Part shown: positions 26,201 to 47,296 of the stretch, piece after piece
Position numbering within the stretch: position 1 is the stretch's first letter
Layout: each line of letters opens with the position of its first letter
Source: a bacterium
GTDB taxonomy: Bacteria > Electryoneota > Electryoneia > Electryoneales > Electryoneaceae
Assembly (NCBI GenBank): GCA_963669175.1
Contig: OY769902.1
Span: forward strand, 4,832,001-4,896,000
Length of the DNA: 64,000 nucleotides
Direction: 5' to 3'
The notes under the pieces: model-generated
Databases searched by the model: none
The model's input: the letters and a program-made list of their open reading frames with translations, nothing else
Told to the model about the DNA's origin: nothing
Position numbers and translations under genes: made by a program

Positions 26201-29200
26201 CCATCGCCGTCCAGGTCCGCTGCGTCTACCATATAAATAAAGCCCGGGCCGGGGAGTGTATGATTGGTGAAGTTTTCTGAACCGTCATTTTCCAGCCAAC
26301 TGACTCCGGTTGAACTCGAGACCTGGCTATAGAGGACATCGAGGTCTCCATCTTGGTCCAAGTCTACTGCCCGGACAGAATAAGCGCCTGACACACCGGA
26401 TTGTAGAACGGTTCCTGAATACGTCCATGGGTCGGAGCCCTGGTACCAAATAATAGCGTGGTCGCCAAGCGAGGTGGCCAGTACGTCCATGATGCCGTCT
26501 TCATCCAAGTCGCAATAGTCAACCGAAGACGGAATATTGATGGTATTCGACACTGTAACCTGAATGAAGCTACCTTCACCATCATACGAGTGGATCAAGA
26601 CTTCATTGTTGTCCGGGTCGACGCTGACGATTCGTTGACGACTATAGTGATCTTCCCCACTGTTGTCGATATAGGTCGCATTGTGGGAGCCGGAAATGGT
26701 CTGTAAGGTGAATGTATCGTCACCGTTATTGATATAGGCCCAGATCCCATCCGTTGTCGAGCAGTATACGATGTCCATCCAACCATCGAAGTCCATATCG
26801 ACCGCGAGCACCTGACGTTCATTCCCCGCAGTTGTAGCTATCGGGTGATATGTCCAGCTCCCCTGGCCATCCCCTTCGTACCATGCCAGATATCCCATCC
26901 CTTCACCGGACGGTGACGTTGCTACGATGTCCAGGTCACCATCGTTATTGAAGTCGGCCACATCAATGAAGCCGGTTGAATCGTTAGTTTGGTCTGCAAT
27001 GTGTTGCGTAAAATCCAGGGGAAGGATAATACCAAAAACACCACTGTTGAATGTTCCACCACCACTCGATGTCAAAGTCAGAACATAATCGAAAGCTTCA
27101 GCCAGGCTGGTGCCGTTTAAGGATTCAGCAATCTGCCAGTTATACACTCCACTTTCGGCATCCACACCGGATGCAATCTGCTCATTGGTGTAATTACCGC
27201 CGGTCAGACTGATGTCAACTGTCTCACCATACTCGCCGCCAGTCCATTCGATGGACACAGTTTGGTCCTGGACAAACATGGCTTCTGCAACAGGAGAAGT
27301 AAAAACCAGAGGTTCATCCAGCTCGAAGCCCCAATTCTCAGTTGAATATGTTGCCGCGCCGAAGCTGTCGACTGCTTTCACATACCATGTGTAGTAGGAA
27401 TACAGGAGACCCGTCAACGTATACGTGGTGTCGGTCCCGACGTAAACAGAATCTGCCTCGCCGTAGAAAAACTCATCCAAACCGCCGCCACCGCCTGCAT
27501 TTTCCTCGTATATGACCCAATACTCCACATTGTCGCCTTCAGGGTCAGTGGAGGAGTACCAAGCCAGATCGGCGCTGTAAACGGTGGATCCATCACTTGG
27601 CGATGCCAGGCTGAACGCGCCGGGGGACAGGTTTGAATCAATCTCCCAGAAATCGACACTGCCACCAAATGTACAGGTTAACAGATCCTGGGTACCATTC
27701 CCATCCACGTCGCAGATTGTCAATCCAGTTGGACCGGAATAAGCATTGTCCAGGGTATGTTCCACGAATGACGCATAACCATCATTTTCCCACCAGGATA
27801 GCGATGCGCCTGTACGTGCAATCGCCGCGATATCAACATCACCGTCATTATCAAAGTCAGCCGGCAGCGCAATTTCAGCCCAGGAGAAGCTGGATGTCAG
27901 AGTGTATTCATTGAATACGTAATCGCCCTGGTTCAGCCAGTAGAAGACCGAATTCAGTGAACGGGAAGTTGCAATAATATCCAGGTTGCCATCTGAATCG
28001 AGATGAGCAGCAGAAACACTATTCAGGCCGGAAAGAACTGAACTGACTACAGTTTCTGTGAAGTCCTGGGCTCCGCCATTGACCCACAAACTGACCTTGC
28101 TACCGGTCATGGACGCGGCAAGCACATCCATATCGTCGTCATCATCAATGTCAACGATATAAACATAATTATACGGTACTGAGCCATCGTCGAATTCATG
28201 CTCAGTGAAAACCTGGTCCCCATCATTTTCCCACCATGACAGCCCACTGGTTGTAGCTTTCGCGCTGACAATGTCCATGTCTCCATCATTGTCCATATCC
28301 GCGGCAACTGCGTGGTACGCGCTGGCATAGGAGTTGGAAATGGTATTCTCTGTGAATTGTCCGGCGCCGTCATTCGCCCACCAGGCAAGCTCACCGCCCA
28401 GGTAGGCTGCGCTGATAATGTCCAGGTCACCATCAAGGTCCACATCAGCCAATGACGTGGAGATAACACCGCTGAAAGTGGAGGTCACAATATTCGCTGT
28501 GAACCCCTGTCCGTTTCCGGGATTCTCCCACCATTGGATCGTATTGCCGGAGTAGCCGGCGGTGACAAAATCGAGATCTCCATCCCCATCAATATCGCCA
28601 GCCACTACATCTTCAGCACCGTCAACACCGAATGCAATTTGTGAAGAGGTCCAGTTGGATGCATCTACCGTTTCGGCCGTAGTAAAGGACCAGATTGGTC
28701 CTTCAACTGTCATGCCGTCAAAGGATGAGACGATCTGCCAGTAATAGGTCGTGTTGGCATCCAACGCTGCATAGGTAATTCCGAATACGTCCTGACTGTT
28801 GGAGGTTCTTTCCCAAATCTGGGTAGAGGGTGGGTAAGAGGTTCCAAAGCAGATATTATAATAGACAGTTGAACCTTCCAGGCGTCCGCCCAGCCAGCTT
28901 AGATCGAAGAATCGGGGTACACCGGTCGCGCCATCTGCCGGGTACGGAGTATTCGGAATATTGATGTCGGTAATAAAGAAGGAACCACTTTCAGCATAAC
29001 CTCCATAATAATCAGAGATCCACAGGGCATAAGAACCGTATTCAGTTAAATCTTCAACACTTATGGTCCATGTAAAAGAAGTTTCCGTTAATCCTGTTGC
29101 AATCATCGTTTCGTTGCTGAGCATAATATCGTAGGGACTTGATCCTCCCGTCCATTCAATTGTTACTTCATCACCGACAGCGTAGGTTTCTTCACCTACT

Positions 29201-29589
29201 GGCGAGATGATATTGATATCACCTCCAGTAATGGAAAACCAGAAAGTGGACATGGACTGCGTTTCATTCCATTCCTCATCACGTGCCCGGACATACCAGC
29301 TATGCTCACCGGCTGAGACGGTCAATTCGGCATATGGATCCGAGAGACCACTTTCCCAAAGTGCGTCGTCAATGTACAGGTCGTAAACGATTGATCCTTC
29401 TTCAGGGTCAGTCGAAATACCCCATTCAAAATAGACAGCGTTGCTCTCCAGGTTCGCACCATTGGCAGGCGACAGCAAATCAAATTCTGTCGGGAACTGG
29501 GCAAATGCACCTCCGGCCCACCCCAACACCATCGCCATCACCGTGAACCCGGTGACCAACATTCTCTTTTGCGTGCTGTACTTCTTCAT
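1..29589 (-). CDS. Giant secreted surface protein/adhesin (at least 9,863 aa, 3' end outside window): FG-GAP/VCBS beta-propellers, FN3/Ig-like domains, one LamG-like domain
   Basis: ATG at 29589 gives MKKYSTQKRMLVTGFTVMAMVLGVAGGAFA|QFPTEFDLLSPANG (signal peptide). The same frame reads FDVYIYDEPLVFDLLTPEDE at bases 60..1 and gave sensible protein wherever I spot-translated it. The minus-strand ORF-track entries I checked in 1-29589 are all in another frame, as expected if this frame has no stop. DxDxDGxxD FG-GAP motifs and F-x-L-L-S-P...W...YYW-x-V-x-A-x-D domains recur throughout. Confidence 0.93.
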   Translation of the reverse strand, partial: MKKYSTQKRMLVTGFTVMAMVLGWAGGAFAQFPTEFDLLSPANGANLESNAVYFEWGISTDPEEGSIVYDLYIDDALWESGLSDPYAELTVSAGEHSWYVRARDEEWNETQSMSTFWFSITGGDINIISPVGEETYAVGDEVTIEWTGGSSPYDIMLSNETMIATGLTETSFTWTISVEDLTEYGSYALWISDYYGGYAESGSFFITDINIPNTPYPADGATGVPRFFDLSWLGGRLEGSTVYYNICFGTSYPPSTQIWERTSNSQDVFGITYAALDANTTYYWQIVSSFDGMTVEGPIWSFTTAETVDASNWTSSQIAFGVDGAEDVVAGDIDGDGDLDFVTAGYSGNTIQWWENPGNGQGFTANIVTSTFSGVISTSLADVDLDGDLDIISAAYLGGELAWWANDGAGQFTENTISNSYASAYHAVAADMDNDGDMDIVSAKATTSGLSWWENDGDQVFTEHEFDDGSVPYNYVYIVDIDDDDDMDVLAASMTGSKVSLWVNGGAQDFTETVVSSVLSGLNSVSAAHLDSDGNLDIIATSRSLNSVFYWLNQGDYVFNEYTLTSSFSWAEIALPADFDNDGDVDIAAIARTGASLSWWENDGYASFVEHTLDNAYSGPTGLTICDVDGNGTQDLLTCTFGGSVDFWEIDSNLSPGAFSLASPSDGSTVYSADLAWYSSTDPEGDNVEYWVIYEENAGGGGGLDEFFYGEADSVYVGTDTTYTLTGLLYSYYTWYVKAVDSFGAATYSTENWGFELDEPLVFTSPVAEAMFVQDQTVSIEWTGGEYGETVDISLTGGNYTNEQIASGVDAESGVYNWQIAESLNGTSLAEAFDYVLTLTSSGGGTFNSGVFGIILPLDFTQHIADQTNDSTGFIDVADFNNDGDLDIVATSPSGEGMGYLAWYEGDGQGSWTYHPIATTAGNERQVLAVDMDFDGWMDIVYCSTTDGIWAYINNGDDTFTLQTISGSHNATYIDNSGEDHYSRQRIVSVDPDNNEVLIHSYDGEGSFIQVTVSNTINIPSSVDYCDLDEDGIMDVLATSLGDHAIIWYQGSDPWTYSGTVLQSGVSGAYSVRAVDLDQDGDLDVLYSQVSSSTGVSWLENDGSENFTNHTLPGPGFIYMVDAADLDGDGDKDLYAVSDYNDVYWIENTGSMSFAPHAINSPSGTAVWMVHGDADGDSNMDLFLGDYGGGQFEETIYWYENQTGGGEVQGADPFAFSLLSPSDGQTVADDATLTWEATSDPDQTTVSYWVVWATDPGFTTRDSANAGEGTSWTLPGWENGTRYWRILAEDENGGLTYSTETWSFIVSDADFLEHVIDNSFSEPVSVYTADVNGDGDKDVIGAALLGDEIAWWENDGTLDVANWTKHTVDNVFDETRSVHAADMDNDGDIDILGAATLGDQITWWENDGGAGTTWITHNVDGAYDEARAVYAADVNGDTYMDIVGAGGGPDGVGSVTWWENDGTNVVANWTEHTIGTSFGEAGTVYATDIDGDGDVDVLGGAWYGDEIKWWENDGGNGTAWIGHSVDAAFDGVRHVYATDMDGDSDVDVMGAARYANSITWWENDGTNVVSNWTEHTVTSTFTDARGIHAKDMDGDGDVDILGAAITDNTVAWWENDGTNNVENWTEHVLSNTFNGARCVFADDIDNDGDNDVLGAARLDNAIAMWENTTGGELNENITVNYPIGGESFVINQLIPITWSNATPGETLTIMVSGGNFSGEVIESGVSVNSAPYNWSIPDALNETETIAASDYVITIVENGSRISANSGTFSITDIPISFAGGIVQMEHDSTAFIDVGDFNQDGWLDVVATNPAGNDGYIYLYLNNGDGSYSENEVTNSLLNGRFIHTVDLNQDGYPDIVASTEFSFGLHAYYNNHDTTFTSLEIAAEYASESIATGDFDGNSYPDIVAANPDQGTLDLWLNDDGETFSYTEVASGLGMPYSVAVADLDENGYQDILVTDISNLTMYWYSHSGGQVFTQHDLLAGLEIPYLVSPDVADLDQDGDLDISLVLMAETGGPFWMENDGSENFTPHMIMAVPNMFCFRIADLNADGIPDFYGTSTSAPIPLWFQGLGDTTWVAHAAGEAAIMGMPVWMAAGDMDNDIDLDLFLGDYSMGGGQGYTIYSYENDLDPVNNAPTAFSMISPADGATISDSPHSFTWEDNSDPDGHALTWWVYFSTTSDLLTDRDSISTDVEYISIAIDTMILDQTYYWTVLASDGYIGGDTWASDTLSFTIEDNPYINLVAFYPYSGDADDASGHERHATEYGGPVLVEDRFGNTDAAYYFDGTDDQIRTSYDAAFYPTSLSASAWVKVESLPDASFNYIMSTCGSGTNPPYDPFRLCIDGEGFPSVHIESQNNAASGTVGGSNPVSFDRWHLVTATVDGSTGAVLLYVDGVLDASDTFGFAPGTGSSDFVVGATSDDGNGAMQFFNGAIDGVRFYNDVLTAAEVEAIYTEGGWNGDYDPLTLTYPTGGETFVFDQTVPITWTGGATGDLLTFTLSGGEVSDAPMVSDIAVEDGVYPWNVSELMNDYTIVAASDYVITVTASPSGDFVSSDPFTIEDPSISFAQSIVQAEQDSTAFIDVADFNQDGWLDVVATNPAGLVGYVLVYVNDGQGGYADVQVTPSLPSGRFVKAVDVNQDGYPDIVATSDDASGMFLYTNDQDMTFTPSQIEGEYTVRSIDTGDLDNDGYPDLVTTAMGGSFTRWMNDGSGNFSGTSLDYNISIPNTVVIEDLDGDGWNDIVLTDYGYETVAWLQNSNGSSFSYYQVLPSSSLSMPQGLAVGDMDDDGDMDIVVAEYDSEGYMYWLENDGNESFTQNFFAEMPYMNSIGVADLDGDGYLDAYSASPAAPFVVWYQSLSGSAWVPHMAGMVMGGTAQMAVHGDADSDGDIDLFFGDYAGGYGDIYTIYVLENDLDPPNNAPRNFALISPFDEAVVTDDPVTFNWENLGDPDGDPLSWWLYLSTSPDMTADRDSIHVYSYSYPIDLSEFANGQTYHWTVLATDGLSTGMTWASDTLSFTTWTGLFAMQTMFTATAPGYLTAGDIDLDGDRDLLVTSQDEGYLHAYTNDNMAMTLDAISGSMAMPWDPAIIDLDFNNQPDIVIADELGGEVGLVHQFISSGQMSFYDFDVAFAFAPTFVAVADLDLDGDWDIIHNSSMEITDVYWQENIGSIDGVPQYIEHYLVEDYRCQYGAAGDIDNDGDEDILLGGNDYPAVAWIENYGDGTFSELQSTNGLQSSVTWCDLVDMNQDGFLDALLINPEEGKMTIQYYESGNADFGVDQILCYDITTGISRAAAYDVDEDGDVDIVALWPSQNSVYWYENLGSPDYQYTAHNIGGIASPMDIVIDDFDSDGDADIAASSFGDNAVYWWENLTDEVNGAPPSIPELATPYPDQTITTSEVTLTWDRSSDPDGETASYTVFYSPLATFAQAVGWTGVGSDTSATLTGLANGTYYWTVVAEDPSGDVQQSSQIYFFNMDVSHFTQQDLVDDGGDIINLVGYDEDSDGDLDVLTADYTGNSVQWYINNEGLLTFQSVGNLSHATSVDAADFDGDGDTDIIAGKTQAVGFYTYYSNNGDGSYQSTSISSSRTFECQFVDIDADNTMDIVATLEGALTQLSPDGEGGLTQTDIGESDAYGMDIGDWNLSGLLEVVTSGYDESNVLKYYEQYEPGGFTVETICDTFVNGYDIAGGDFDQDGVTDAAAISTTPGTGLVVYMHRNESWIPVLVDTGMRGKRVRTGLINDDAYLDIVATGYDIDEVAVYLNDGTGLSWTRESLGSIGSPVALDLVDWDDDGSLDILVGTETDSIRLYLNDFPEPPEQAPGVPALVYPTNGETFGYDVVTLQWGESIDPQGQAVDYTVIWALDAGFTTGVGYADQLDQLQYPLYALEDFTTYYWKVRAVDEQGYWTESEARSFTTEFGQGVLLDEYLVMETPGTHSGASPFDMDGDGDMDAVVISESSHSLSWYENDGAFNFTEHTIDAYFGENVWVDDIDGDGDGDVAVISFSAENVGWYEQTAPGTFTFHELGAHASGQWVEVRDVDEDSDLDIIAAFETASGVYWYENDGSTPPNFTEYMVGNAGDVSGPWDCEAIDFDGAGGVDIIVPDYVGNTLGWFQNDDAETFGYTDIATLIAPHSVAVADFNLDTYKDIVVACEGSFPDYNGSQVIWFENDGGLSFYNSHQLSSGSYSCVNVGDFDGDGDTDIAAGSWNEAVAGWYENIDGSVMTWHPLLSGENCTEIQIIDADADGDDDMLVTTTAGVYWFLQGGISNTAPATFALISPADEYLTDMTSIACSWDASIDPDGDDVTYTLIWSTSPTFSSNVDSTEGLTNTSSVLIDLADRNFWYWKVRAYDPSGLGIESETSHSLYLNLNGVVNDPLTVVDADLHYGTAVSTGDVDHDGDIDIVATGASNGVVWYENDGGYFGSQELLYNLTSSENDVCVSDLNGDTYDDILFVGRAPNAAGSVAWLENQGGTFSFHSINSTLNSPTDARGADFDGDGDIDVAATINGSPNQATDGELIWFRNDGNGSSWTTLTIDAGLEGATSLEPVDMDDDGDVDILATGETNNDLNWYENDGSGSFTTHAITHSLNRPSRIWPGDMDGDGDVDFAVVAFVSDVLAWFENDGSESFTYHLVEDQLNGASVVYGGDTDLDGDIDLFAGANLDNLVMEFRNNGNMEFTRIVYTAFDSGPEDVLLADIDNDLDLDFLAVAKSENKLSMWENDASDFLPTGFDLTYPLAGSVIQESSTWLRWQSSMDPQGFGGITYKVQWTTGDEYDPWQVAYTPADSFYLAGLEDDSLYYWNVTAIAESGLEMEANSEESFSINMPNDPRGRTTEFASSIMGAFNAASDLLPEDVDFDGDVDMIAVSYTNSTIGWYEYDSDSETWTYHLIDDTEASATVVKLGDISGDGIDDILIGRDTFPYLIAYVNDGAGSFTGVPVGEVPGPITDFEVGYFLGNSSIQLVLGCTDDSLFFIGDNVQFIHADWPVDNIEVLDFDQDGYLDIVCNGTADAGEPSVWWMEGTGDEMIEHGIEYSQTSIPDISMLKLDGSDNWHIAGVNPATSGSVWWENDGSMNFTYHHLFGGGTGYTDIETADIDRDGHEDLLFNRSDVLYCLYNLDGMLTGFQVYGISVTQTNGVFATADLFDTGYKDVITFNAGLNELVVNSNTSTFKLTSPPVGSWSDGESVTLEWEEVTDPDPLDNIGYWLKWATNAAFDLNVDSMLVYDTTATLENLSNMNTWFWSVTAVDQNGGRLEPASLRYVFVRDLEYSGRPTFPNGETTVDNSLVMASDGVKGDFNRDGYLDFAVAWNGSNTIRVYFNDGTGSFTTQDVTTSLDLVQTLSVVDVDQDGRPDLVAGCSNSTLGQDHLVWFRNGSGAPIVWTEYFIDDGFPNVFSVRAVDMNGDSYPDIVAASYTTGQVGWYEHSQASPPSWTFHLVASQANAFSLAIDDIDGDGDKDILAGAQSEGGNVAWYENDGSGNFSAHSVTTSNNYTQHVFIADVDGDGYNDLLTTSDGDGNIKWWASDGATPPNFSNGVTITNGFLEATDVKAFDFDADGDVDILGAAQGSGEIRWWENDGNPAPSFTMRTIGSLTGAADIISGDFDLDMDADIVGLGFAGNVVKLWENFPTTEFDPPNAFSLVSPANEATVTTHTPELSWNETEDPDSPTFLYALFWSFSASFDADVDSVILAGTSFTLPWQQDDQTLYWKVLAFDDEGNETWSDQTWSFDISVPDAPRGPEMVWSRSTLNDELISLRDALPVDVDGDGDIDIATTHDTDEANRFHLLRQNASGVFNEYDVPNGTALSTTYGAVPVYLDPDDYIDFVVVDKSNNRLYIYWGDASGYFSTSQPLLAGLSQPNSAIAGDFDLDGDMDLAVTNEGTNDAVLLINDGTDPPSFSSQLILDGEDNYYFNKVVAGDMDRDGDLDLVIQKTSSGGSGYVIIAENNLYDGFGFTEHTALSVNSPSGLNLADVNDDGKLDILVANNGNSTVFWAQNNDNFAFTAYALPGTVDTPSMIDAADYDADDDLDLLTGSYIDNTYYLYTNDGTNTFTQSEIDVQSGHQSMSNRWSDLDGDGDIDIVVSEIAFGAYWYEQSYPFALLGPEDGSIINSTELTWQTVTDPDPGQTIEYVLQYTTDPTWQANVWTTVISDTFYTYNSWEEGETTYWSVIARDNTYQHQLWAQDTLSFIYENVDSPNPFSLAAPANQSEFASRSVVVSWDLTTDPDVGDSVEVYIVQWSSDPTFNTDLHWATTDNDSLRITGLMDELTYSWRVRAMDTQGNITPSGETWTFDIELDEPPVGSEMFWTKSVIDNDNNEYNDMLPMDFDEDSDIDIIGAAGLDDFNKALRFTNNNGFWDDGGIPGNTDLSSPPEFAIGDFNNDLVEDIVIISRNDHTVKLYLGDGTGNHTPLTVTEEIVGATGIATGDFNLDGALDIAVGSNTGDSLVICLGDGQYPPSFTFVIIPTYSNPLSLDAGDIDDDGDLDIAVGAHGAVGWMENTGFDAGDIWTQHDLQNPFNFAQDIVVEDMDADGDLDVLTANNDATGFITWYENAGGGTFSSQSTLPGNYNGIPQVWVADYDEDGDKDVFVPGYNDGIICVYQNDGYQNFTADTLDTYAEGNGRAVISGDFNGDGWIDIVAADQYNGLYQYNRSSRFATTYPGWADSVQTLQPTITWEEVLETDPDDSVFYSLVYAYSDPNLEEATTVSPIWDTEYTFPYGDLANGDEVYWAVYATDTQDNEIASDTSMFVVNLDAAFTSHQIFFAEGPVNAIGRGDVDQNGTEDLIYIDPDADQLLIQYNDGMGNFTQDVAFPNYYADPKKYIVVDFDGDEDMDILNLNTNFVDIFENEGDGNFGAPIALLTVSGVTDFEVFDYQGDGDLDFVAVGPSTVRLGVSDGEGVVTGTIISDVIGGSEVEVTDLNNDGYDDIVMVVNANDNVIGWTYVEGSGYTSNTVLGSMNNPTSLEIVDFDDDGNEDIVVGSDDGLAWLDYTGVFSYTLYLIDESYTGVTDIVAVDIDWDGDVDLLTSSDYNADEEVTLWMQNVPLTLDRQPIAEFYSFPASLDWADFNGDHMPDVLVMEQSGGLARWYDNLIETPVNPHYPAAPLLTYPEADATVEEMAVVLTWDVPEDQDVTDRLYYVVRSAEDPYLTVNVDSFLTYSPFHKLADLTNSQNYYWAVMAHDVNSGGVWSDTLHFLVNYNSAPGAFALLSPENGITLDTPDTTFSWEEAVDDMPPGDHVVYTLWLATDASFTDNLFTYATDNTSFSVSGLLDNTTWYWKVRAVDEWGAETWSTETWSIDVNIPDLPQGPEIELLPEGVILSGLTNARDVKVVDLDQDGDSDLVVCGDGASELTWLDNDGSNNFTETVIASEYGGVNDVSIADLDDDGDLDVAAVTNANEVSWFENDGSQTFTRHDLSTDFTAPSHIEVGDLDNDGDIDIVAGAYTSWGKVFENNGDGTFTEYDQGPGLVGAIELVDVNNDGIRDIVYQHGGNPGSVTWYEVPDGDFSALTSNTVTTAVVGAADVMVGDINGDGWRDFVVPIDDPQNKIVWYENQNAESYVEHEVALNTGLAWDGELADLDVDGDLDIIVSGAQDGDMVWYSNDDGTGTSWTAHEFVTGLDLASAIRAVDLTGDHAPDLVGMDYYGDEVMWWSNTSPFSPISPDTATVMLVDEERVFTWQSVTDPDPGDEVTYSLIYSTDPTFETADTLDSIADTSFSFVTGSFADDQTYYWYVQALDTNTDGLTSENVFWFETDYSEPPAAFSLNLPVDEDTVRADTVAVSWNRAIDPDPADTTLSYTVFWSQDPTFSEVVFDSTVGDDTTLVIRELSDDSIYYWKVLAQDSNTEGTESTETWSFAVYIYDVPGEFSLLTPTDTDTVYADSATVEWNTALEIDPGDSVIYWVYYGLDAAFTAETYDSVSTEDTTLVLHELMDDSTYYWKVWAQDTNTEGTWSTETFQFFINILEPPAAFSLNLPVDEDTVRADTVAVSWNRAVDPDPADTTLSYTVYWSEDPAFGIGVQDSTVGNDTTLVLRNYKDDTTIYWKVHAQDSNTDGTWSSETRSFDVYIYDEPFAFNLLTPTDEDTVYADSATVVWNTAFEADPGDSVIYWVYYGLDALFTAETYDSLSTEDTTMALYELMDDSTYYWKVLAQDTNTEGVWSDSTFQFHINILEPPSAFSLNLPVDTDTTHADTMAVSWNRAIDPDPADTTLAYTVYWSFDPAFVEGVFDSTVGNDTTLVLRGLEDDMTYYWKVHAQDSNTDGVWSTETWSFDVYIFDAPGEFSLLTPNNEVTVYTDSATVEWNTALEVDPGDSVIYWVYYGQDILFAADSYDSLSTEDTTLVLHELMDDSTYYWKVWAQDTNTEGTWSSEDFQFHVSILEPPSAFSLNSPANGEEIHDVTTVVSWYRAVDPDPVDAELAYTVYWTMDPNFIEGVFETNVGNDTSFTIPELADDNTYYWKVHAQDSNTDGTWSSETFEFSVYIYQPPNSFTLIEPADEDTVVTLRPTLIWEEATDPDPGEELSYDVIWSINDDRFGDPQMASGISATQYTFAGDLPDDATIYWYVIARDPQDSTFATDTWSFLVGQPEAPLAFSLLSPTDEDTSHTGSATFTWAETTDPDPEDVIVYTLWLATNTGFTQNVRTFSTLGTSVTVADLMDDRTWYWKVKANDGITTGTWSNEVWTLDTYIQNTPRGETTDFVYVEDMGTGLSQPDQGQLVDLDQDGDLDVVVNQRIGSDLHWYENDGFGNFTDHTISPGVPNAHDVKAGDMDGDGDIDLVATPGGNGVVWLENDGAQNFTQHPIVLDVSGQGYIGLGDLDNNGYLDIVTGESGGTIYFFENTGGVFNAYPLLNEVSNNGAFHVVDIDNDGTLDVLVPFNDAISFFNIANLAQGGAAVTDIVTGLSGVQAAHAVDINWDGLLDVVSMDAANYDLTWYQNSGQVWTAHTLDDATGPARGIGSGDFDLDREMDVVANIADGNMLWGWLNQGGPWEAPWPHVSGDSNFGYGHAVLVGDLDGDFAPDLVVPSVNNGTIRWYRNVAPFTLAQPESGYVMLADQDLQLSAESVTDPDPGDYVYYGYFWSDDPTFENDPYYVMSAGQHYTIPAGMLQDDTRYYWYAVAYDENGDTLKSEEVWYFDTEFYEAPEEFSLVSPADLDSTHADTVQLVWNGTTDPDPADEILTYWVYWSQNPSFEAESYDSVSTLDTTLVLHELDDDSTYYWKVWAQDSNTNGTWSTETWSFDVYIYDEPLAFDLLTPEDEDTTYSTSANVEWEVAVETDPGDSVIYRVYWSYDALFSTDTVDSVDTEETSATLTDLMDDSTYYWKVWAFDTNTEGTWSSSVFQLHVNILESPEEFSLLSPLDTDSVRVDTVLVTWERTYDPDPVDVELNYTVYWSEDPTFNEGVFEASVGNDTSSVIRDLVDDTRYYWKVLAQDANTDGTWSTETWYFDVYIYDEPLAFDLLTPEDEDTTYSTSANVEWEVAVETDPGDSVIYRVYWSYDALFSTDTVDSVDTEETSATLTDLMDDSTYYWKVWAFDTNTEGTWSSSVFQLHVNILESPEEFSLLSPLDTDSVRVDTVLVTWERTYDPDPVDVELNYTVYWSEDPTFNEGVFEASVGNDTSSVIRDLVDDTRYYWKVLAQDANTDGTWSTETWYFDVYIYDEPLAFDLLTPEDEDTTYSTSATAEWEVAVETDPGDSVIYRVYWSYDALFSTDTVDSVDTEETSATLTDLMDDSTYYWKVWAFDTNTEGTWSSSTFQLHVNILESPEEFSLVSPADLDSTHADTVQLVWNGTTDPDPADEILTYWVYWSQNPSFEAESYDSVSTLDTTLVLHELDDDSTYYWKVWAQDSNTNGTWSTETWSFDVYIYDEPLVFDLLTPEDE
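3580..6665 (-). repeat. Second, more diverged array of about 10 FN3-like domains with 621-bp periodicity in its core
   Basis: aaccggcaggttca at 5080, 5701 and 6322. The same YYWKV-x-AQD-x-NT-x-GTWS motif recurs about every 310 bp. Confidence 0.85.
22240..22890 (-). other. LamG-like/concanavalin-A-type jellyroll domain within the giant protein
   Basis: Translation LVAFYPYSGDADDASGHERH...DRFGNTDAAYYFDGTDD...SASAWVK...WHLVTATVDGSTGAVLLYVDG...FFNGAIDGVRFYNDVLTAAEVEAIY matches the Laminin_G_3 pattern. Confidence 0.85.
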
Positions 29590-29627
29590 AAGTCGACTCA
29601 CTGTTTAGGGCCGTCCGGGGTCACTCT

Positions 29628-29652
29628 TCCCGGCCAGGCATGGCCGGTCTAC
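29628..29652 (-). repeat. GTAG-type REP-like palindrome, copy 1
   Basis: Minus strand GTAGACCGGCCATGCCTGGCCGGGA: a GTAG tetramer followed by a CCGGCCA/TGGCCGG stem. Confidence 0.75.
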
Positions 29653-29831
29653 CCGGGAACGCTCCAACAACGTTGCGGTCCAACCTTCGCCGCCCGGCTG
29701 GTTTCGCTTCAAAACGAAACCTGACGTGCGGCGCCACGATATCGTGGACTATATCAAGCGGCGAACTTCTCACCGAACACTTTTTCAACTTCTTCCCGGG
29801 TGCAAGCGCCCGGGCCACACGGTTTTCCTCA

Positions 29832-29856
29832 TCCCGGCCAAGCATGGCCGGGCTAC
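29832..29856 (-). repeat. GTAG-type REP-like palindrome, copy 2
   Basis: Minus strand GTAGCCCGGCCATGCTTGGCCGGGA, 18 bp after the stop of the barrel gene. Confidence 0.75.
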
Positions 29857-29874
29857 GAAGAACCGAGCGACTAC

Positions 29875-32754
29875 CTAAAACTTGTACGTGTACCTGAGCA
29901 TCATGGTCAGGTCATCACGTTTGAACGACGGTATCGGTTGCGCGAAAGTGACCGTGGTCGTTCCATCCGTATTGGTAACCGTTTCCGATTGCGAACTGAA
30001 TTCCGCGCCATTCCAATACCTTACCCGGTTGGCTTCCGTATAGGCTGACATGCTGACATCCGCCCGTACCAAGTGGTTGGGCATAAATTCCCATTCCACA
30101 CCGCCGATCCAGTCAATTCTCTGGAAATCGAGCAGCAGGTCTTTCGGAGTGGTCAGGTTCAGCGAGTCAATCTGGGCAGCCAGGGTCGGGTCGGTGATGT
30201 CATAACCTTCACGTTCCAGCAATTCCTGCGGACTGTACGGACTGTAGTTCCTTGTACCGACGCCATGAGTCAAACGTGGTCCGACAAACGGGCGCAGGGT
30301 ATTGTTCATGAAGTTGAATTGCAGTCGCAGGTTGAAGGCGTCATACCCGATATCGGTCAAGCCGTCCTGCCCCTGCTGGTTCACTCGGGAATAATAAACC
30401 GTGCTGATGATCGGCAGATCATAGAACGAACTCCTGAATGACAGGTTGTAGTTCTGCTGATCGCTTTGGTTCAGATCGTTGAATTTATCTTCTTTCATGG
30501 ATTGCACGACTTGCAGGGTGAATTCATTGTTGGCGCCAAACATGGCCCGGTTATAGGTCAGGTTTCCCGAATAACGATTCTCGGTATAGTCCTTCCTGTC
30601 ATCGATTTCCAGTGAATCTTCCGGGGCATCCGGATCGCCCTGGGCGATCCAGCGCTGTTCAGCATCGTTGGAGATATGGTCGTTTTGCCAATTGAACGAC
30701 AAATTGGGCAATGACGGATCAGAATAAATGTCAAACCCAAGGTTAAACCTCATTGAGGTCTTGGTGTTCTCATTGCCGCCAATCACGTTATCCCGGAAGA
30801 CATCAATGCCGCCTTTCAGGTGCAGCGCGCTGTCAAACAGCCGCCAGCGATCCCGCAAGCGGACACCTTCACGGTCCTGCGCGAGCGACGGCATGGCAAT
30901 TGATTTAAAGCTCTTGTTGATGCGATATACTTCCGCCTGGATATTGTGGTTGAAGTAACGCAGTCCCAACCGGGTTCTGAAAGACAATGAACGATCCAGA
31001 ACTGTACTCAACGCCTCGCCGAAATCACCAGCCTCATCGGTCAGTACCGGATCAAAATGCTGATTGATATAAATCAGATCCTGATATTGCCTGTAGGAAT
31101 CCATCACCGGATCAGAGATATCATCATTGTACAATGACATGGCAACTGCCGCGGACAGGGTCACTCGTCTGCGATCCGCGAAGGCTTTGAAATCCATACC
31201 TGCAACAAGATTGTCCTTGGGTTTGGTGCCGTAATCGATGGATGATTCATCATCCTTGGCTTTCATCACAGTCAAGCCAAGTGTAAAATATTTTGGGTGC
31301 TGCACATAGGTACGAAAAGCGCCCATCCAGCGACGGTATGTTCCTGAAGTCCAGGATGTATCAGCCATCAGCAGTGGGTTATTCGGGTCGCTCTCGTCGA
31401 TGTAATACGCGAGATACTGCCTTGGATCAACAGCCCTGCGTTGCTCACCATAGATAGCCTTCGCTCCGAAATACTGACCGTTGTAGGCCATTTCCATACC
31501 ACGCGTTCTGCGTCCCCACAGAACCAACTCATTATACATGGGATTGACATCACCCAATTGCAGGGTAACATCTTTGTACTGTACGCTCCCGTGGAAACGA
31601 TGCTGCGGTTGCAGTCGTTTATTCTCTTCGCTGGATATTGTGGTTCTCGCGGAAAACTTCCAATCCCCTCTACGCGCCCCGATTGCAGCCGTTTCCCTGG
31701 CAATGCGAAGCAGATCGTCGTTGACATTCTGGTAAATCAGTTCAACACCGGCGCGCCCGCTTACCTCAGTCCATTCAGTTTTTACGGACGTTTTGCTTTT
31801 TGTCGTATAACTCCAGTTCAGAACGCTTCTTGCCGGTGAATCTGATGTAGCTTTCCGTTGAAGGACGATGTTATGGTTTCCTGATGTAGTCGTCTTCACC
31901 GGAAGAACAACCACTTCATTGGTGATCGTGGCTTCTGAAGTCCTGTCAACCCCATCGACCATTACCATCAGGTTGGCAGGGTTAATCTTGGTCTGACTTG
32001 GATTCATCGAAATCGCAACCAGGTACTCATCCGCGACCAGCTCCTGATCCGGTCGCGGTGAAAGCACCATGAATCCCTTTGCCTGCGTACCTGTCGCCAC
32101 AAGCTGGTTGGGTTTCATGAACTGCGATTCTATCTGCTTCTCACTCAAGTCAACATCCAAAGGCTGGATTTGTGACACAGAAGCGATCAGCGAATCGATG
32201 TATGCTTGCGAGATTCCCGGTGCGACCATGGCAATCTCGGGTTCCGGCTCGGGTTCCGGTTCTTTCCTGGTGACCGGTTGGGGTCTTGGTTTGGGGCGTA
32301 CGGGCTGCTCAGCGACTCGTTTCGGCTTTGCTTCAACCGGCTTTTCCTGTATGGTCACTTTTGCCGGTGACAACGACGGGTTTTCAGCAGGCACTGAAAT
32401 GGTTTTCCCACTTGCCAGCTTCCCGACGATATAGTACTCCAGCGCCCCTGCCTGCGACGAATCCGTTGGGATCGAGGCTTCATAGACTCCATCCTTCTCG
32501 CTGAAGGACATGGAAGCATAGTCAGCCTCGCCCGCTTTCCGATAGAACAACTCCAGCGAAACTACCTTATCATCAGCCTTTTCGCTAAGTTGGTCTACGG
32601 ACACACGGATAGTGACCGGCAGTCCCGCTGTGGTAGTCGAAACAGGTTCGATATCCAGCTTCGCCGATGGTCCCGCCTGTTTCTTCGAACAGGACAGACA
32701 GGCAACCAGCATCAGTGCTGCTGCCAGAAGCAGCATGTAGCGTAACGACTTCAC
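29875..32754 (-). CDS. Putative lipoprotein with Ig-like N-domain, Pro/Glu/Lys-rich linker and large C-terminal outer-membrane beta-barrel
   Basis: Likely GTG start at 32754 after GGGGAG (the track starts at 32790). MKSLRYMLLLAAALMLVAC lipobox, KPKRVAEQPVRPKPRPQPVTRKEPEPEPEPE linker, many amphipathic strands, C-terminal YTYKF. Confidence 0.75.
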   Translation of the reverse strand: MKSLRYMLLLAAALMLVACLSCSKKQAGPSAKLDIEPVSTTTAGLPVTIRVSVDQLSEKADDKVVSLELFYRKAGEADYASMSFSEKDGVYEASIPTDSSQAGALEYYIVGKLASGKTISVPAENPSLSPAKVTIQEKPVEAKPKRVAEQPVRPKPRPQPVTRKEPEPEPEPEIAMVAPGISQAYIDSLIASVSQIQPLDVDLSEKQIESQFMKPNQLVATGTQAKGFMVLSPRPDQELVADEYLVAISMNPSQTKINPANLMVMVDGVDRTSEATITNEVVVLPVKTTTSGNHNIVLQRKATSDSPARSVLNWSYTTKSKTSVKTEWTEVSGRAGVELIYQNVNDDLLRIARETAAIGARRGDWKFSARTTISSEENKRLQPQHRFHGSVQYKDVTLQLGDVNPMYNELVLWGRRTRGMEMAYNGQYFGAKAIYGEQRRAVDPRQYLAYYIDESDPNNPLLMADTSWTSGTYRRWMGAFRTYVQHPKYFTLGLTVMKAKDDESSIDYGTKPKDNLVAGMDFKAFADRRRVTLSAAVAMSLYNDDISDPVMDSYRQYQDLIYINQHFDPVLTDEAGDFGEALSTVLDRSLSFRTRLGLRYFNHNIQAEVYRINKSFKSIAMPSLAQDREGVRLRDRWRLFDSALHLKGGIDVFRDNVIGGNENTKTSMRFNLGFDIYSDPSLPNLSFNWQNDHISNDAEQRWIAQGDPDAPEDSLEIDDRKDYTENRYSGNLTYNRAMFGANNEFTLQVVQSMKEDKFNDLNQSDQQNYNLSFRSSFYDLPIISTVYYSRVNQQGQDGLTDIGYDAFNLRLQFNFMNNTLRPFVGPRLTHGVGTRNYSPYSPQELLEREGYDITDPTLAAQIDSLNLTTPKDLLLDFQRIDWIGGVEWEFMPNHLVRADVSMSAYTEANRVRYWNGAEFSSQSETVTNTDGTTTVTFAQPIPSFKRDDLTMMLRYTYKF

Positions 32755-32869
32755 GATACGCTCCCCATTGGTTTTACCCCTCCCCAACAAGCCGGTCCCT
32801 CAACCAGCCTGGAACAACAAAGTTCCTATACAACTCGTGCTGCGTTTTTTAATCGGATAGCGTCATCCA

Positions 32870-33574
32870 CTATTCTTCTCCGCCTGCATCCTGGTAATTG
32901 ATGATCAGTGTCCGCACGTTTCCTTCTTCATCTGTATACTCGATTTCTATGGTCTTCGGCATCGCTTCATTGATGAATTGCGGCAGGTTCTCCGCAGTAT
33001 ACCCACCCACTCCAACATCACCATCAGCGCCCGATGTGCCACGCTGTCCCTGGCCGACATCCATATTCAGGCCGCTCAACAGGTTCATCAGGTCAACGAT
33101 ACCTTCCAGAGTCAGAACATCCGTAGTGCCATCCGCATTCACCATCACCCAGAACTGTGTGCCTTTCACAGCAGCGACAGAGGTTGGCGTTGCCACTTCC
33201 ATGCTTCCCTTCTGTTGGGAAACATTGGTAAACAGCTCACCCACTTCCATGGAAACACGTTTGTTCAGGGAATAGTCATCGTTTCTTTGGGCAGTAACAA
33301 CAATGTCACTGTTCGGACGGATTTTCAGTTCGGTACGATCATCGGTAAACACAAGTGCAATAAAGCCTTCCGTACCTGTTCTCAGCTTGTCGCCATCGTC
33401 GAGCACCAACCCGAAAGAGAGTGGTTTCCAGTTCTGGCCAGCTTTCTGATACTCGGCTTCACCCTGGACCATAGTCACCACTGCGATGGTCTTTGCGTTT
33501 TCTGCAAACGCGAATGAGCCGAACAGAATCAGCCCACACAAAGTCCAAAGGAATACACTTTTTGCAATGTTCAT
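32870..33574 (-). CDS. Secreted FecR-domain protein
   Basis: Signal peptide ending AFA|E. FecR-family motifs GDKLRTG and VATPTSVAAVKGTQFWV...TLEGIV. Confidence 0.85.
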   Translation of the reverse strand: MNIAKSVFLWTLCGLILFGSFAFAENAKTIAVVTMVQGEAEYQKAGQNWKPLSFGLVLDDGDKLRTGTEGFIALVFTDDRTELKIRPNSDIVVTAQRNDDYSLNKRVSMEVGELFTNVSQQKGSMEVATPTSVAAVKGTQFWVMVNADGTTDVLTLEGIVDLMNLLSGLNMDVGQGQRGTSGADGDVGVGGYTAENLPQFINEAMPKTIEIEYTDEEGNVRTLIINYQDAGGEE

Positions 33575-33654
33575 GACTCTACCTCTTCCGTGAACCGATT
33601 CTACGGTTCATCTCCCGTGGACAAGCCCCCTCAATACCTTGCCCCGACATCCTT

Positions 33655-35208
33655 CTATTCATCACCAGCGACAAGCACTGTGATCACTTCAAATCCCTCC
33701 TGGCGCACCAGGTTTGAAAGGTCGGATATGGAATAACCAGCCTGGTCATCAATCCTGATTGTCCCCGGACTGAAGCCTGACAACTGCTCCATAACAGATT
33801 CATATTGACCGGATGTCAGGATGGATTGCAGCAAAGCGGCAACCTGCTGAGCGTTCTGATCCCCTCCGCCTCCGGGTTCATTGTCCGGTGACGGTTCATT
33901 TCCGGGACCATTATCCTCCTGACGGTTGAAATAGAAGCTTGCAGCATCAGAAACGTATTCTGTCTGCGTTTCCGGATCCATCATACCGACCTGCCAATAA
34001 TACCAGATGCCACTGCGAAGTGCGGTATTACCGGTTTCGTTATACATGTAACTGCCCACAACAACCGGACTGGTATTGACCAGGGTATTGCCGGGGCCGG
34101 CGCCCTCGATAGCCGCGAGCGCATCATCCGATTCTTCACTTCCCTCTACCAGTTTGATCCACCAGTTTTCGGCGCTGATATCATCCCCGTTCCAATTCCA
34201 ACTGAAACCAACAGGCGCATCTTCAACAGTGCTGCCATCCATCGGGCTTGAAAGCGTAATCGCCCAGTCCTCAGCTTGCCCACCTTCCATCTGGAATGCG
34301 AAGATTTCACTCGCGTATTCTTCTTCACCCCCAGGCACAATGGAAGGCACGTCCGCAAACACCTGCCAGTAATACCATTGTCCTTCTGTAAGCGGCTCTT
34401 CCTCTCCCGCCATACCGGTGTACAGGTGCATGGTAGTGGTGGTGGGTTGTCCTTCATAGCGCGTGTTCAACGAGGTGCGTGTCTCCATCACCGTTTCACC
34501 GTCAGAACCGGCCGGTCCCTCCGCAACAACAAGCGTCCAGTCGCTGGGCAGTGTGGCGCCGCCGCTCCAGTCCCAGGAGAATTCTACCGGAAGCTCAAGT
34601 CCCTGCTCAAAATGAGCTGGATTCTGAAGTTCCGGTGGCGTGGGGTTGTACACCTGGACAGTGTTGTTGAAGGTGGATAGAAGCGTGTTGGTTCGACTTT
34701 CATAGACCTGGAAACTGATTGTGAATGTGCTGGTGACAAGAAAGCCACCTTCAATCAGATCAAGCAGCTCATCTGTGGTAGAGTAGTAGGTCTGGTGCAG
34801 ATTGGTGTAAAACCAGTCAGACCCTTCTGAAAGCTCTGCGATTTCAAGGTTGGAGTATTGTCCGTTTCCATGAACACTGAACCAGTCGGAAAGTGTGAAC
34901 GGATACGAGACAAAATTGATCATTCGTTCTCCGCCAAGTTCGCCGGTAATGTGGATATAAACGCGTTTTGGACGGTCAACTGGGTCGGCAATGATCTGGA
35001 TATAGAAAAACTCTTCGATGGCGTCCAGCGATAATTCGCCTCCAGTTTCGAGGCTTTCCAGATCAATGAGCTGGCCTGCCGGAACCACGAGGAAGCGGTT
35101 CTGATAAAAACCGACTTCTGCAGTTACCGTACCAAAACTCCTGGCCGGCAAAATAATGACTGCCAGCAGCAACATTATGGATAGCTTGCACGTTCGATAC
35201 CTGCTCAT
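33655..35208 (-). CDS. Secreted hypothetical protein with two FN3/Ig-like domains
   Basis: 517 aa with a signal peptide. Two repeats of L-x-x-P...V-x-FSW-x-W...WYYWQV...S-x-x-x-x-F, and a Gly/Pro linker before the C-terminal domain. Confidence 0.8.
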   Translation of the reverse strand: MSRYRTCKLSIMLLLAVIILPARSFGTVTAEVGFYQNRFLVVPAGQLIDLESLETGGELSLDAIEEFFYIQIIADPVDRPKRVYIHITGELGGERMINFVSYPFTLSDWFSVHGNGQYSNLEIAELSEGSDWFYTNLHQTYYSTTDELLDLIEGGFLVTSTFTISFQVYESRTNTLLSTFNNTVQVYNPTPPELQNPAHFEQGLELPVEFSWDWSGGATLPSDWTLVVAEGPAGSDGETVMETRTSLNTRYEGQPTTTTMHLYTGMAGEEEPLTEGQWYYWQVFADVPSIVPGGEEEYASEIFAFQMEGGQAEDWAITLSSPMDGSTVEDAPVGFSWNWNGDDISAENWWIKLVEGSEESDDALAAIEGAGPGNTLVNTSPVVVGSYMYNETGNTALRSGIWYYWQVGMMDPETQTEYVSDAASFYFNRQEDNGPGNEPSPDNEPGGGGDQNAQQVAALLQSILTSGQYESVMEQLSGFSPGTIRIDDQAGYSISDLSNLVRQEGFEVITVLVAGDE

Positions 35209-36343
35209 ATCGAAACCTCGCTCTGGTTTAGCGTAAACATTGGAAGAGCTGCATGGTCAGCCATAGCTGTCTTCCGAGACGTAACGATCCCACCAGGGAT
35301 CTCATCCCCGAAAATCCGCACCAATGGCACAGCTTTCGAGAGGAAGTTTTGCGGTGGGAAACACAATTCTGGCAACCCGGACATCCCCAACCTCCCGCTG
35401 GGGTCCACCATCCCTCGCCGATACCTGAATTCTCCTGCCAATCGGGAGAATAAAACACCTGCCGCATTAATATAGTATAGAGCATACCCGTAGTTCCACG
35501 AGTGCGACCTCGCCGAAACACTTTTTTTCAGAAAAACATGAAAAATCGATAAGCCAAAGGCTAATCCGAGATAATGACTCCAGTTACTATTCATGACCTC
35601 CCCTCAGGCCGTAGTTGGAGTTTGACAATGGAACATAAGAACAAGAAAAACACAAAACTGTGAGCCCCGTCATTGAGGTACCTCACACATTTCGAATTAT
35701 GACACTACTCAACCATGCAACAATCCGTTAAATCTGCGAAAAATCACGGCTATATCAACTGATGACACAGGCTAATCAAGGCATCTTTTTCCCCATACAT
35801 CCACACCTTGCCGCCCAGAATCTTCACAATTCCTGCAAACCTTGTTCGATAGCTTTTTCTTTGAAACCACACACTGCTACATCACATAATTACAATATTT
35901 TACTCTCGTTTCGGCTTTTCAGAACCAGAAAATGCCAAACTTCTTTGTTATGATTCCTTTACATTTTCACAGAAATCCCTTTCGCCCCCCCCCAGAGAAT
36001 GGACTACCCGATAGCCCTTTATAAAAACAAAATCGGTATAGTTGAAACAGAATTTATCTACCTGTTATTTCAGGGTTTCACTCAACACACCCCACCACAC
36101 TATGATCGACAATTACTGACAGAAATATTCAGCAACTTTCATTTCCCAAACAAATCACATACTGATCCTCCCCTTCGAAACCCATAATCATGGCAATATT
36201 CACACCCGGCCTTTGAATATGCTCCTGGAGGAAACATGACTGTTGCTTCCGAGGTCAGACCTTCCGTACTCTTGCGGAAACGATTGCATCTATTTCGTTT
36301 ATTCGTTTTAGCGTTTTATCGTTTCACACGAAAGCCATGACTG

Positions 36344-46202: not shown

Positions 46203-47267
46203 CTACAGTTCTTTGTACCTGAAAGCAATCCAGGCGGATACAGGTGAACCGTCAACAACCTTGTAGTAGTTGGTAATCTGGAACTTGTAATACACTGCAT
46301 CGCCGGTCAGGATCAGGTAGACATGTTCGGTGCTGAGCAGCTCATGGGTAGAGCTGTTGTATTCGTACCAGTCATCAAACACGGAGGATACCGAATCCTG
46401 TTCGTAGCTGCCGCCCATATCCGGAGGCGCCGAGGTCATGGTATCGAAATCGTTGTAGTTATCATCATCATAGGCCGGATAGACCCCTGACGCACCCAGT
46501 CCGCTGATGCCACCGTTGATCTTTACGGTGAATCCATCGAACCAGATGTCCCAGTCTGTCGATGCGGCCGGGTCATCAATCTCAACCCCTGCACCCGTGG
46601 CGAAAGAAAAGAAGATGCTGTTGTCTGAATTTGTATCTTCTACTGTCACAACTACCGGATCGCCGGACAAGTCACCGCCTTCAGCATCGTAAACATAGGT
46701 CAGTTCAACCGCACCGATCTGCATCATCCCGGCCGGGGTTATTCCAGTGACTATCAGCTTGGCATAGCTTTCACCATCAGCGCCACGCAAGGCAAAAACA
46801 CGATTGGAAGGATCAACTGTGTGGTTAGTCGGATCGTACGTATACCAGCCATCGAAGACATACGAGGTCGCGTCTTCCACCCACTCGTCATCCGCTACTT
46901 GTGGGATCTCTACCAAGCCCTCAAAATCAGTGCCGTATTCGTTGCCAAGGCTTTCCAGGTCTACCGCTTTCATCCCGGACGTGCCGGATGATCCGCCATT
47001 CAGCTTGAGCTGATAACGCTTGAAGCCTACGCTCCAGTCGGTGCTGCTTTCAGGATCAGAAACAGTCACTTCCTGATCTGTTGCGAGGCTGTAATAAACG
47101 AAGGCCTCTGCGTCAGTCGCGTCTATCTGGTATTCCGAATACGATACAGTATCCTCGTCTGACGGTCCGGCCGGGTTGGTGTTGTCATCATCATCTGAAC
47201 AGCCGATGAAGCCCAAACCAAGAACAAATGCGATGGGCAAAATGAATAAAACAAACTTCGGCTTCAT
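46203..47267 (-). CDS. hmuY: HmuY-family heme-binding lipoprotein with two HmuY-like repeats
   Basis: Lipobox FIGC followed by SDDDD. Motifs DWSVGFKRYQLKLNGGSSG and DWDIWFDGFTVKINGGISG, WY-x-Y...H, and YAKLIVT / YYKFQITNYY. Confidence 0.8.
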   Translation of the reverse strand: MKPKFVLFILPIAFVLGLGFIGCSDDDDNTNPAGPSDEDTVSYSEYQIDATDAEAFVYYSLATDQEVTVSDPESSTDWSVGFKRYQLKLNGGSSGTSGMKAVDLESLGNEYGTDFEGLVEIPQVADDEWVEDATSYVFDGWYTYDPTNHTVDPSNRVFALRGADGESYAKLIVTGITPAGMMQIGAVELTYVYDAEGGDLSGDPVVVTVEDTNSDNSIFFSFATGAGVEIDDPAASTDWDIWFDGFTVKINGGISGLGASGVYPAYDDDNYNDFDTMTSAPPDMGGSYEQDSVSSVFDDWYEYNSSTHELLSTEHVYLILTGDAVYYKFQITNYYKVVDGSPVSAWIAFRYKEL

Positions 47268-47296
47268 GGGTTTACTCTCCTTGGTATGTTGTGTTA

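Follow-up and report, generated by a model that had tools for sequence, protein, structure and literature searches.

A conserved FecR-domain/outer-membrane barrel gene module preceding a giant type IX cargo gene in an Electryoneaceae bacterium: a probable envelope-signaling system

Introduction

Sinorhizobium meliloti cyclases of the CHASE2 type are described as sensing a plant protein by way of the outer-membrane barrel protein NsrA (PMC13001267). In the Campylobacterota, genes for CHASE2 cyclases are reported to occur in clusters with one for an outer-membrane protein having a FecR domain (PMC9239204), and in Burkholderia, LysM-FecR genes adjoin CHASE2 kinases; the factors recognized by CHASE2 domains are stated in that account as not known (PMC5192318). 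Described here are three consecutive genes from a bacterium of the Electryoneaceae (GenBank assembly GCA_963669175.1, contig OY769902.1), which encode a secreted protein with fn3-like domains (p517), a small soluble FecR-domain protein (FecR234), and a large outer-membrane barrel lipoprotein (barrel971). They lie, followed by the gene for a giant secreted protein, within the stretch of 64,000 nucleotides (nt) that was analyzed, positions 4,832,001 to 4,896,000 of the contig, which is hereafter referred to as the window. An earlier note, prepared from the letters of the window, had viewed the three genes as an uncharacterized module that translocates, chaperones, or tethers the giant. The analysis presented below shows that the genes in question (35208..29875 of the window) belong to a conserved module of which the genome has three paralogous copies. 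It suggests that this module probably serves in envelope signaling and that the window copy most likely still signals in trans to an unlinked cyclase.

The gene directly upstream of cyaK on S. meliloti pSymB encodes a "FecR domain-containing protein" of 1,190 amino acids (aa) with Pfam matches to FecR and TPR and a weak C-terminal match to an outer-membrane protein (OMP) barrel. This protein is probably NsrA, given that nsrA reportedly lies immediately upstream of cyaK (Garnerone et al. 2018). NsrA and its cyclases CyaK, CyaD1, and CyaD2 resemble the system described here in that a FecR domain, an outer-membrane β-barrel, and a CHASE2 cyclase are encoded together. The FecR domain and the barrel are, however, specified by separate genes here, without TPR repeats, and are accompanied by an extra conserved gene, that for p517. 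Additionally, the barrel protein has two Ig-like domains and ∼28 predicted strands. On the best reading, the module would be a split relative, in architecture, of the Sinorhizobium NsrA/CHASE2-cyclase surface-signal pathway.

The likeness to the Campylobacterota and Burkholderia systems is that a CHASE2 sensor is, in each, found linked to an envelope protein with a FecR domain (PMC9239204, PMC5192318). The available text of those reports names other partner genes, namely those for a phosphodiesterase, a TPR protein, a response regulator, and DUF4136, gives a kinase as the output in Burkholderia, and describes neither a separate large barrel nor a p517 family. An operon of p517, FecR, barrel, and CHASE2 genes in the FCB phyla was not found described in the accessible literature, on which supplementary operon tables may bear, and no literature joining CHASE2 with type IX secretion was found.

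Results and Discussion

Conservation of the module and its linkage to CHASE2 cyclases

Gene neighborhoods were compared at 55 loci, with one genome scanned per species, from KSB1, Calditrichota, Electryoneota, Gemmatimonadota, Ignavibacteriota, Bacteroidota, Zixibacteria, and records labeled Deferribacteres. At 48 of them the barrel gene is immediately preceded by a FecR gene on the same strand; four of the other seven loci end before the upstream DNA, and the rest are L015, L059, and L060. Upstream of the FecR gene, a p517 homolog was recognized by a hidden Markov model (HMM) at 21 loci, and an open reading frame (ORF) of 361-405 aa occupies the same place at a further 20. Sixteen of these ORFs went into an alignment that matches the p517 profile with an hhalign probability of 100 and an E-value of 3.6e-40, which places distant homologs of p517 in operons of the Ignavibacteriota and Bacteroidota. 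Because the same gene order occurs three times in the genome under study and in dozens of other genomes, the grouping is not due to chance, and p517, FecR, and barrel constitute a conserved, uncharacterized module. To this extent the earlier note was borne out, both by the conserved order and by the lack of a Pfam family for the barrel.

What follows the barrel gene is, in most carriers, a gene for a CHASE2 adenylate/guanylate cyclase. It is found directly after the barrel at 44 of the 55 loci (44 of the 51 having downstream DNA), encodes a protein of ∼700-760 aa, and usually begins 2-30 nt past the barrel gene. The identity of the cyclases was assigned with Pfam (6 of 7 plus 38 of 41 proteins scanned), and a local HMM gives the same 44. 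Four of the 11 loci lacking the cyclase are without downstream DNA (L020, L048, L054, and L063). Of the remaining seven, L009, which belongs to the same genus as the window, has an ortholog of the giant after the barrel, L022 has a gene for a 1,782-aa C25-peptidase carried as cargo by the type IX secretion system (T9SS), L059 has an Omp85-like gene, and L010, L011, L025, and L060 have unrelated genes. A large secreted protein is encoded after the barrel at two loci, L009 and L022, and the order of module followed by giant is seen in this genome and one other of the same genus only. The expectation that homologs of the three genes would consistently precede very large secreted proteins was not borne out by this survey, and with it the proposal that they translocate, chaperone, or tether the giant loses its footing. 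Given that a CHASE2 cyclase stands next to the module in most relatives, the latter is probably a signaling device rather than an export machine for the giant.

At the locus from Electryonea the cyclase (L015:12327-15983) has 1,218 aa and contains CHASE2 in two stretches, and the barrel gene lacks a FecR gene upstream.

Copies of the module in this genome and genus

The source genome is complete, on one contig of 5.45 Mb, and searches with tblastn and HMMs located the trio of genes at three positions: 4.86 Mb (the window, copy A), 2.12-2.14 Mb (copy B), and 1.744-1.749 Mb (copy C). In copy B, a DDE transposase of an insertion sequence (DUF772/DDE_Tnp_1; G000:C1:2125655-2127034, equivalent to L066:5655-7034) immediately follows the FecR gene. 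Between the transposase and the barrel gene stand a further two genes, for T9SS cargo of 1,130 and 1,069 aa; the copy B operon is thus interrupted. No giant was found near copies B and C.

Two CHASE2 cyclases are encoded elsewhere in the genome, at 1.09 and 1.12 Mb. One of these unlinked cyclases, with 760 aa, can be aligned along its whole length with the operon-linked cyclases of relatives at 55-60% identity; an output component is still present, in trans.

Loci L009, L010, and L025 derive from one metagenome-assembled genome, L009 being contig C22 of the same-genus genome G001. In a FastTree phylogeny the three copies of the genome under study pair one-to-one with these loci, and the triplication is therefore older than the split of the two genomes. 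Copy C is placed inside the CHASE2-linked clade. The barrel family is present in all 15 genomes of the same family that were searched, with four match places in this genus only and one or two in other genera. The barrels of copy A and L009 are 66-67% identical, and the L009 giant is orthologous to that of the window, being collinear with it and 49% identical at the N-terminus.

The barrel protein and its predicted contact with FecR234

Barrel971 is a lipoprotein with the lipobox L-V-A-C and a C-terminal end reading ...YTYKF. No Pfam family could be assigned to the barrel family at a meaningful level among the 38 members scanned. An exhaustive HMMER scan yielded 657 cluster representatives at E<=1e-3 and 116 at E<=1e-30; a word-based homolog search returned the barrel itself and two FecR+Ig proteins aligned to its N-terminal Ig domain alone.

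The AlphaFold2 model employed here was calculated with a 90-row alignment and has a predicted local distance difference test score (pLDDT) of 85.3 and a predicted template modeling score of 0.73; that calculated from the single sequence had a pLDDT of 35 and was unusable. The predicted architecture begins with an Ig-like domain delineated by residues ∼44-148, a disordered Pro-rich linker from 151 to 236, and a second Ig-like domain from 240 to 330. Residues 342 to 971 form ∼28 long strands connected by short turns on one side and by long loops on the other. The fold closest to the model is that of MtrB, and ushers, TonB-dependent transporters, and porins are also among the nearest. The match to MtrB of the Shewanella MtrCAB complex (PDB 6r2q, chain B) is at 10-11% identity, without a relation at the sequence level, and such a likeness in fold shows neither common descent nor function. 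Nearly invariant residues of the barrel include E389, Q394, R398, D414, R428, R430, D513, and N527, which, by the predicted topology, would sit in extracellular loops or in loops folding into the lumen.

Binding of FecR234 to the barrel was likely beforehand, given that the two are fused elsewhere and that their adjacency is conserved. A complex prediction with barrel residues 235-971 and FecR residues 25-234 gave a score of 0.41, the best of three controls scoring 0.00. The runs have at least 51% of their contacts in common, and the partner pLDDT is at least 63. The mark applied to such predictions was passed by 58 of 80 solved complexes and by 2 of 110 mismatched pairs, and the passes scoring 0.60 or less comprise 7 of the 80 solved complexes and both of the passing mismatches; these calibration counts are only approximate for the present pair, whose alignments were built by ourselves. 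The model hints that FecR234 may contact barrel971.

p517 and FecR234

FecR234 matches the FecR family PF04773 with an E-value of 1.3e-13 (51.6 bits versus a cutoff of 24), and this is the sole significant Pfam or NCBIfam match among the three upstream proteins. The same searches revealed no enzyme domain in any of the three, in agreement with the lack of enzymatic motifs reported earlier. FecR234 is a soluble periplasmic FecR-domain protein, having a signal peptide but neither a transmembrane segment nor an anti-sigma part. Matches below the cutoffs were to DUF7354 in Pfam and to LipL45/Lsa33/Lsa19 and retention_LapA in NCBIfam. The last of these covers the N-terminal half of the FecR domain and is sub-threshold (E 3.2e-5, 24.2 bits, cutoff 50); a profile search of the PDB gave a match to 5ix9_A (E 1.9e-4). 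At the extreme C-terminus of the FecR family, the alignment displays a conserved two-strand motif, IEIxFxDExGNxKTLII, which would suit strand addition to a partner.

The FecIRA system likewise employs a periplasmic PF04773 domain that contacts an outer-membrane barrel protein. It differs in that its FecR protein has a cytoplasmic anti-sigma domain and a transmembrane helix, whereas FecR234 has a cleavable signal peptide. No sigma factor was identified among the 17 window neighbors scanned, and no TonB-dependent transducer is adjacent, the nearest TonB-dependent receptor being 14 kb away beside an HmuY gene. The conclusion of the earlier note that this is not FecIRA signaling holds.

In the p517 polypeptide, an N-terminal domain of ∼170 aa is followed by two fn3/Ig-like repeats (one in most relatives), after which a linker rich in Gly and Pro leads to a C-terminal domain that is conserved and has ∼70 aa. 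Its only Pfam match, a weak one, is to Ig_Rha78A_N, and a profile search of the PDB gave no match. Its neighbors in a protein atlas are fn3 proteins, the atlas otherwise yielding hypothetical and fn3 clusters alone. Both FecR234 and p517 have a single cysteine and, as judged from their translations, no CXXCH motif.

Other combinations of these domains were also observed. In 11 Ignavibacteriota/Bacteroidota loci (L034, L037, L038, L040, L045, L049, L052, L055, L057, L058, and L061) the FecR protein is longer, with 337-376 aa, and contains an Ig-like domain of the type that forms the N-terminus of the barrel protein. Proteins P0002 and P0003 (564-567 aa) combine FecR with three Ig domains of this same type. 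In the genome under study, a 751-aa protein (G000:C1:193445-195700, or L068:3445-5700, minus strand) consists of a FecR domain close to FecR234, an acidic/Pro-rich linker, and a C-terminal half that resembles an OMP and has ...QIRF as its last residues. It has the appearance of a second FecR-barrel type, with the two parts fused, and its gene is divergent from that for a 908-aa T9SS cargo protein. The genome further encodes, at G000:C1:314620-316950 and 252873-255266, proteins of 776 and 797 aa that combine LysM and FecR with multiple Ig domains. Theirs is the LysM-FecR architecture associated with CHASE2 kinases in Burkholderia, but neither of the CHASE2 genes at 1.09 and 1.12 Mb is near them.

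Export of the giant protein

In the whole genome the giant has 11,589 aa, or 11,593 aa if taken from the first start codon. It has a signal peptide at the N-terminus, and its repeats and domains are of the FG-GAP/VCBS, fn3, and laminin-G-like types. Its last 77 residues match Por_Secre_tail (PF18962; 36.1 bits versus a cutoff of 27), and the genome encodes SprA in a 2,272-aa frame (SprA_N, 149 bits). With both of these in hand a dedicated exporter is unnecessary, and the best explanation is that the type IX system, and not the set of three upstream genes, carries the giant out of the cell.

Such cargo is abundant. An HMM built from the C-terminal domains of the genome itself detected 324 ORFs with a T9SS C-terminal domain, equivalent to 8.9% of the 3,637 greedily called genes of at least 100 aa. 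Thirteen of the cargo proteins are longer than 2,000 aa, among them four of more than 5,000 aa (5,177, 5,237, 10,354, and the giant). A co-directional cargo gene lies directly downstream of 6.1% of genes, and 28% of genes have cargo within two genes. At this frequency, adjacency to cargo is weak evidence of a functional link. Indeed, the module adjoins 1 of the 13 cargo proteins larger than 2,000 aa, namely the giant of the window, which on the sequence comparisons appears to be a neighbor of the module rather than a supported member of it.

The arrangement recalls the helpers of SprB (sprCDBF, with anchors of the PorP/SprF type), whose genes stand beside that of a giant T9SS surface protein and include one for an outer-membrane barrel. 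It differs from them in that the C-terminal domain of the giant matches Por_Secre_tail and in that the usual neighbor of the module is a cyclase, not cargo. No match to PorP_SprF (PF11751) was found in the genome, in a search that was silent in every control genome as well. The retention module of LapA and MpIBP differs in that it is an N-terminal plug domain of the adhesin itself and operates with a type I secretion system (T1SS), whereas FecR234 is no part of the giant, and the giant itself belongs to the T9SS cargo.

Proposed function and alternatives

The module consists of a predicted outer-membrane barrel, a soluble periplasmic FecR-domain protein, and the secreted, fn3-like p517. In most carriers a gene for an inner-membrane CHASE2 adenylate/guanylate cyclase comes after these three and completes a putative operon of four genes. 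In the mechanism we propose, the barrel would receive a cue at the surface or in the outer membrane, the FecR-domain protein bound to it would relay that cue through the periplasm to the CHASE2 sensor domain, and the cyclase would then alter the synthesis of cyclic nucleotides. In this genus, the cyclase gene would have moved away and the module been triplicated, with the window copy coming to lie upstream of a giant T9SS cargo gene by happenstance. That copy would most likely signal in trans to the unlinked 760-aa cyclase ortholog.

Several observations weigh against this proposal. A CHASE2 cyclase is not adjacent in the window, which sets it apart from the NsrA-CyaK arrangement and makes the signaling output of the window copy an inferred one; nor does either of the other two copies in this genus have an adjacent cyclase. 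The CHASE2-linked clade does not include copies A and B, which are found on long branches in the company of the cyclase-less L011 and L022. This placement, which fits a changed function, is tentative in that the FastTree phylogeny was midpoint-rooted and its long branches were flagged. The copies without a cyclase (A, its ortholog L009, L022, and B) lie beside T9SS cargo somewhat more often than the 6% background, although they are very few and represent two or three related events. Finally, the barrel has no detectable homology to the S. meliloti 1,190-aa protein (hhalign probability 0.2, in a one-sided comparison of a profile with a single sequence). For this reason, the module is likened in its working to the NsrA system, and the barrel is not placed in the NsrA family.

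The alternative that survives these observations best is that copy A lost its cyclase link after duplication and acquired a new function, either anchoring the giant at the outer membrane or sensing its presence, folding, or engagement. It would account for the position of copy A on a long branch with cyclase-less loci, one of which, L022, precedes the C25-peptidase cargo gene, and for the synteny of module and giant, which has been kept in the second genome of the genus despite the divergence of the barrels. The weak resemblance of the N-terminal half of the FecR domain to the retention module of giant T1SS adhesins, seen in the sub-threshold retention_LapA match and that to 5ix9_A, and the fn3-like domain type common to p517 and the giant also speak for it. 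That synteny is limited, however, to two genomes of one genus, the fn3-like domain is widespread in secreted proteins of these phyla, and a structured spacer of 285 nt separates the barrel gene from that of the giant. Moreover, 12 of the 13 cargo proteins larger than 2,000 aa, including that of 10,354 aa, have no module nearby, and cargo genes are common enough that such proximity is frequent. We regard this explanation as unlikely.

A more speculative idea joins the two functions. The conserved operon of p517, FecR, barrel, and CHASE2 genes would encode a trans-envelope signaling conduit built like MtrCAB, with the FecR protein or p517 inside the 28-strand barrel, that mechanically links the surface to CHASE2. 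In this genus a duplicated conduit would have been connected with the giant FG-GAP adhesin of 11,589 aa and would inform the unlinked cyclase when the adhesin attaches or comes under tension. If true, CHASE2 sensors would gain a long-missing input. The similarity to MtrCAB is one of predicted barrel fold, and the module differs from it in having no multiheme cytochromes, CXXCH being absent from FecR234 and p517. In our estimation this conduit is quite unlikely.

More doubtful again is a transport system, in which the barrel would serve as a substrate channel, FecR234 and p517 as periplasmic binding partners, and the adjacent cyclase of the relatives as a reporter of flux. The nearest folds are indeed those of large channel-forming barrels, and conserved charged residues lie in the predicted loops. 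Yet, across the loci examined, the operon has no conserved plug or TonB box and no conserved ABC gene or other gene for energy coupling, the sole conserved fourth gene is a sensor cyclase, and without CXXCH motifs in FecR234 and p517 the module is not an electron conduit of the Mtr type.

That the three genes form an apparatus devoted to secreting or translocating the giant, as the co-directional run of exported genes ending in the giant had hinted, is very improbable in light of its T9SS C-terminal domain, the SprA and 324 cargo ORFs of the genome, the predominance of CHASE2 cyclases over large secreted proteins after homologous modules, and the lack of an ATPase or other energy source in the module.

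For annotation, the p517, FecR, and barrel families are better read as parts of a signaling module than as secretion helpers. The rhizobial NsrA represents one studied case, and it shows only that an outer-membrane barrel is required for CHASE2 input. The split, four-gene version is known from six or more phyla belonging to the FCB group, and its separate, unannotated 28-strand barrel, modeled with confidence and with 657 cluster representatives, and small soluble FecR protein offer separable parts with which to approach the question of how the outer membrane communicates with a cyclase in the inner membrane.

Gene layout and neighboring features

Listed in Table 1 are the features of the locus. 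The ORF listing and translations gave four co-directional minus-strand genes (35208..1) in the order p517, FecR234, barrel971, and giant, and a hydrophobic N-terminal signal sequence could be read directly from each of the four translations. The description of four co-directional exported genes is thereby confirmed, with gaps of 80, ∼115, and 285 nt. The second of these values applies to the database copy of the barrel (P0001), which starts 12 codons later and has 959 aa; depending upon which barrel start is chosen, the distance from FecR234 is 79-133 nt.

Table 1 Features of the module locus in window coordinates
Feature	Position	Strand	Length	Remark
p517	33655..35208	-	517 aa	First gene of the module
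FecR234	32870..33574	-	234 aa	80-nt gap after p517
barrel971	29875..32790	-	971 aa	Counted from first TTG
Barrel-giant spacer	29590..29874	-	285 nt	
Giant, 5' 9,863 codons	1..29589	-		ATG at 29589; runs past window edge
ORF overlapping p517	35205..35594	-	129 aa	Overlaps p517 start by 4 nt; probably not a gene
Region upstream of p517	35209-36343		1.1 kb	Probably holds the module promoter
HmuY-like protein beside TonB-dependent receptor	46203-49591	-		Probably heme uptake

The spacer between the barrel and giant genes is strongly structured (RNA fold of -131.3 kcal/mol, z -3.81) and contains one weak terminator-like site only. Within it are two copies of a GC-rich palindrome, CCGGCCATGCYTGGCCGG, which is present 21 times in the genome, and 54 times in a looser form, and looks like an intergenic repeat of the repetitive extragenic palindromic (REP) type. 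The spacer may act as a boundary to transcription, or it may be an element like REP. Scans for sigma-70 promoters and terminators gave counts at the level of shuffled sequence and are uninformative for this phylum.

The 129-aa ORF has neither a family match nor a paralog. The region upstream of p517, which ends at a divergent TetR gene, is AT-richer, with a GC content of 0.44 in the 36-38 kb bin. Further away, the TonB-dependent receptor next to the HmuY-like protein has a CarboxypepD_reg N-terminal domain, and the pair probably functions in heme uptake, unrelated to the module.

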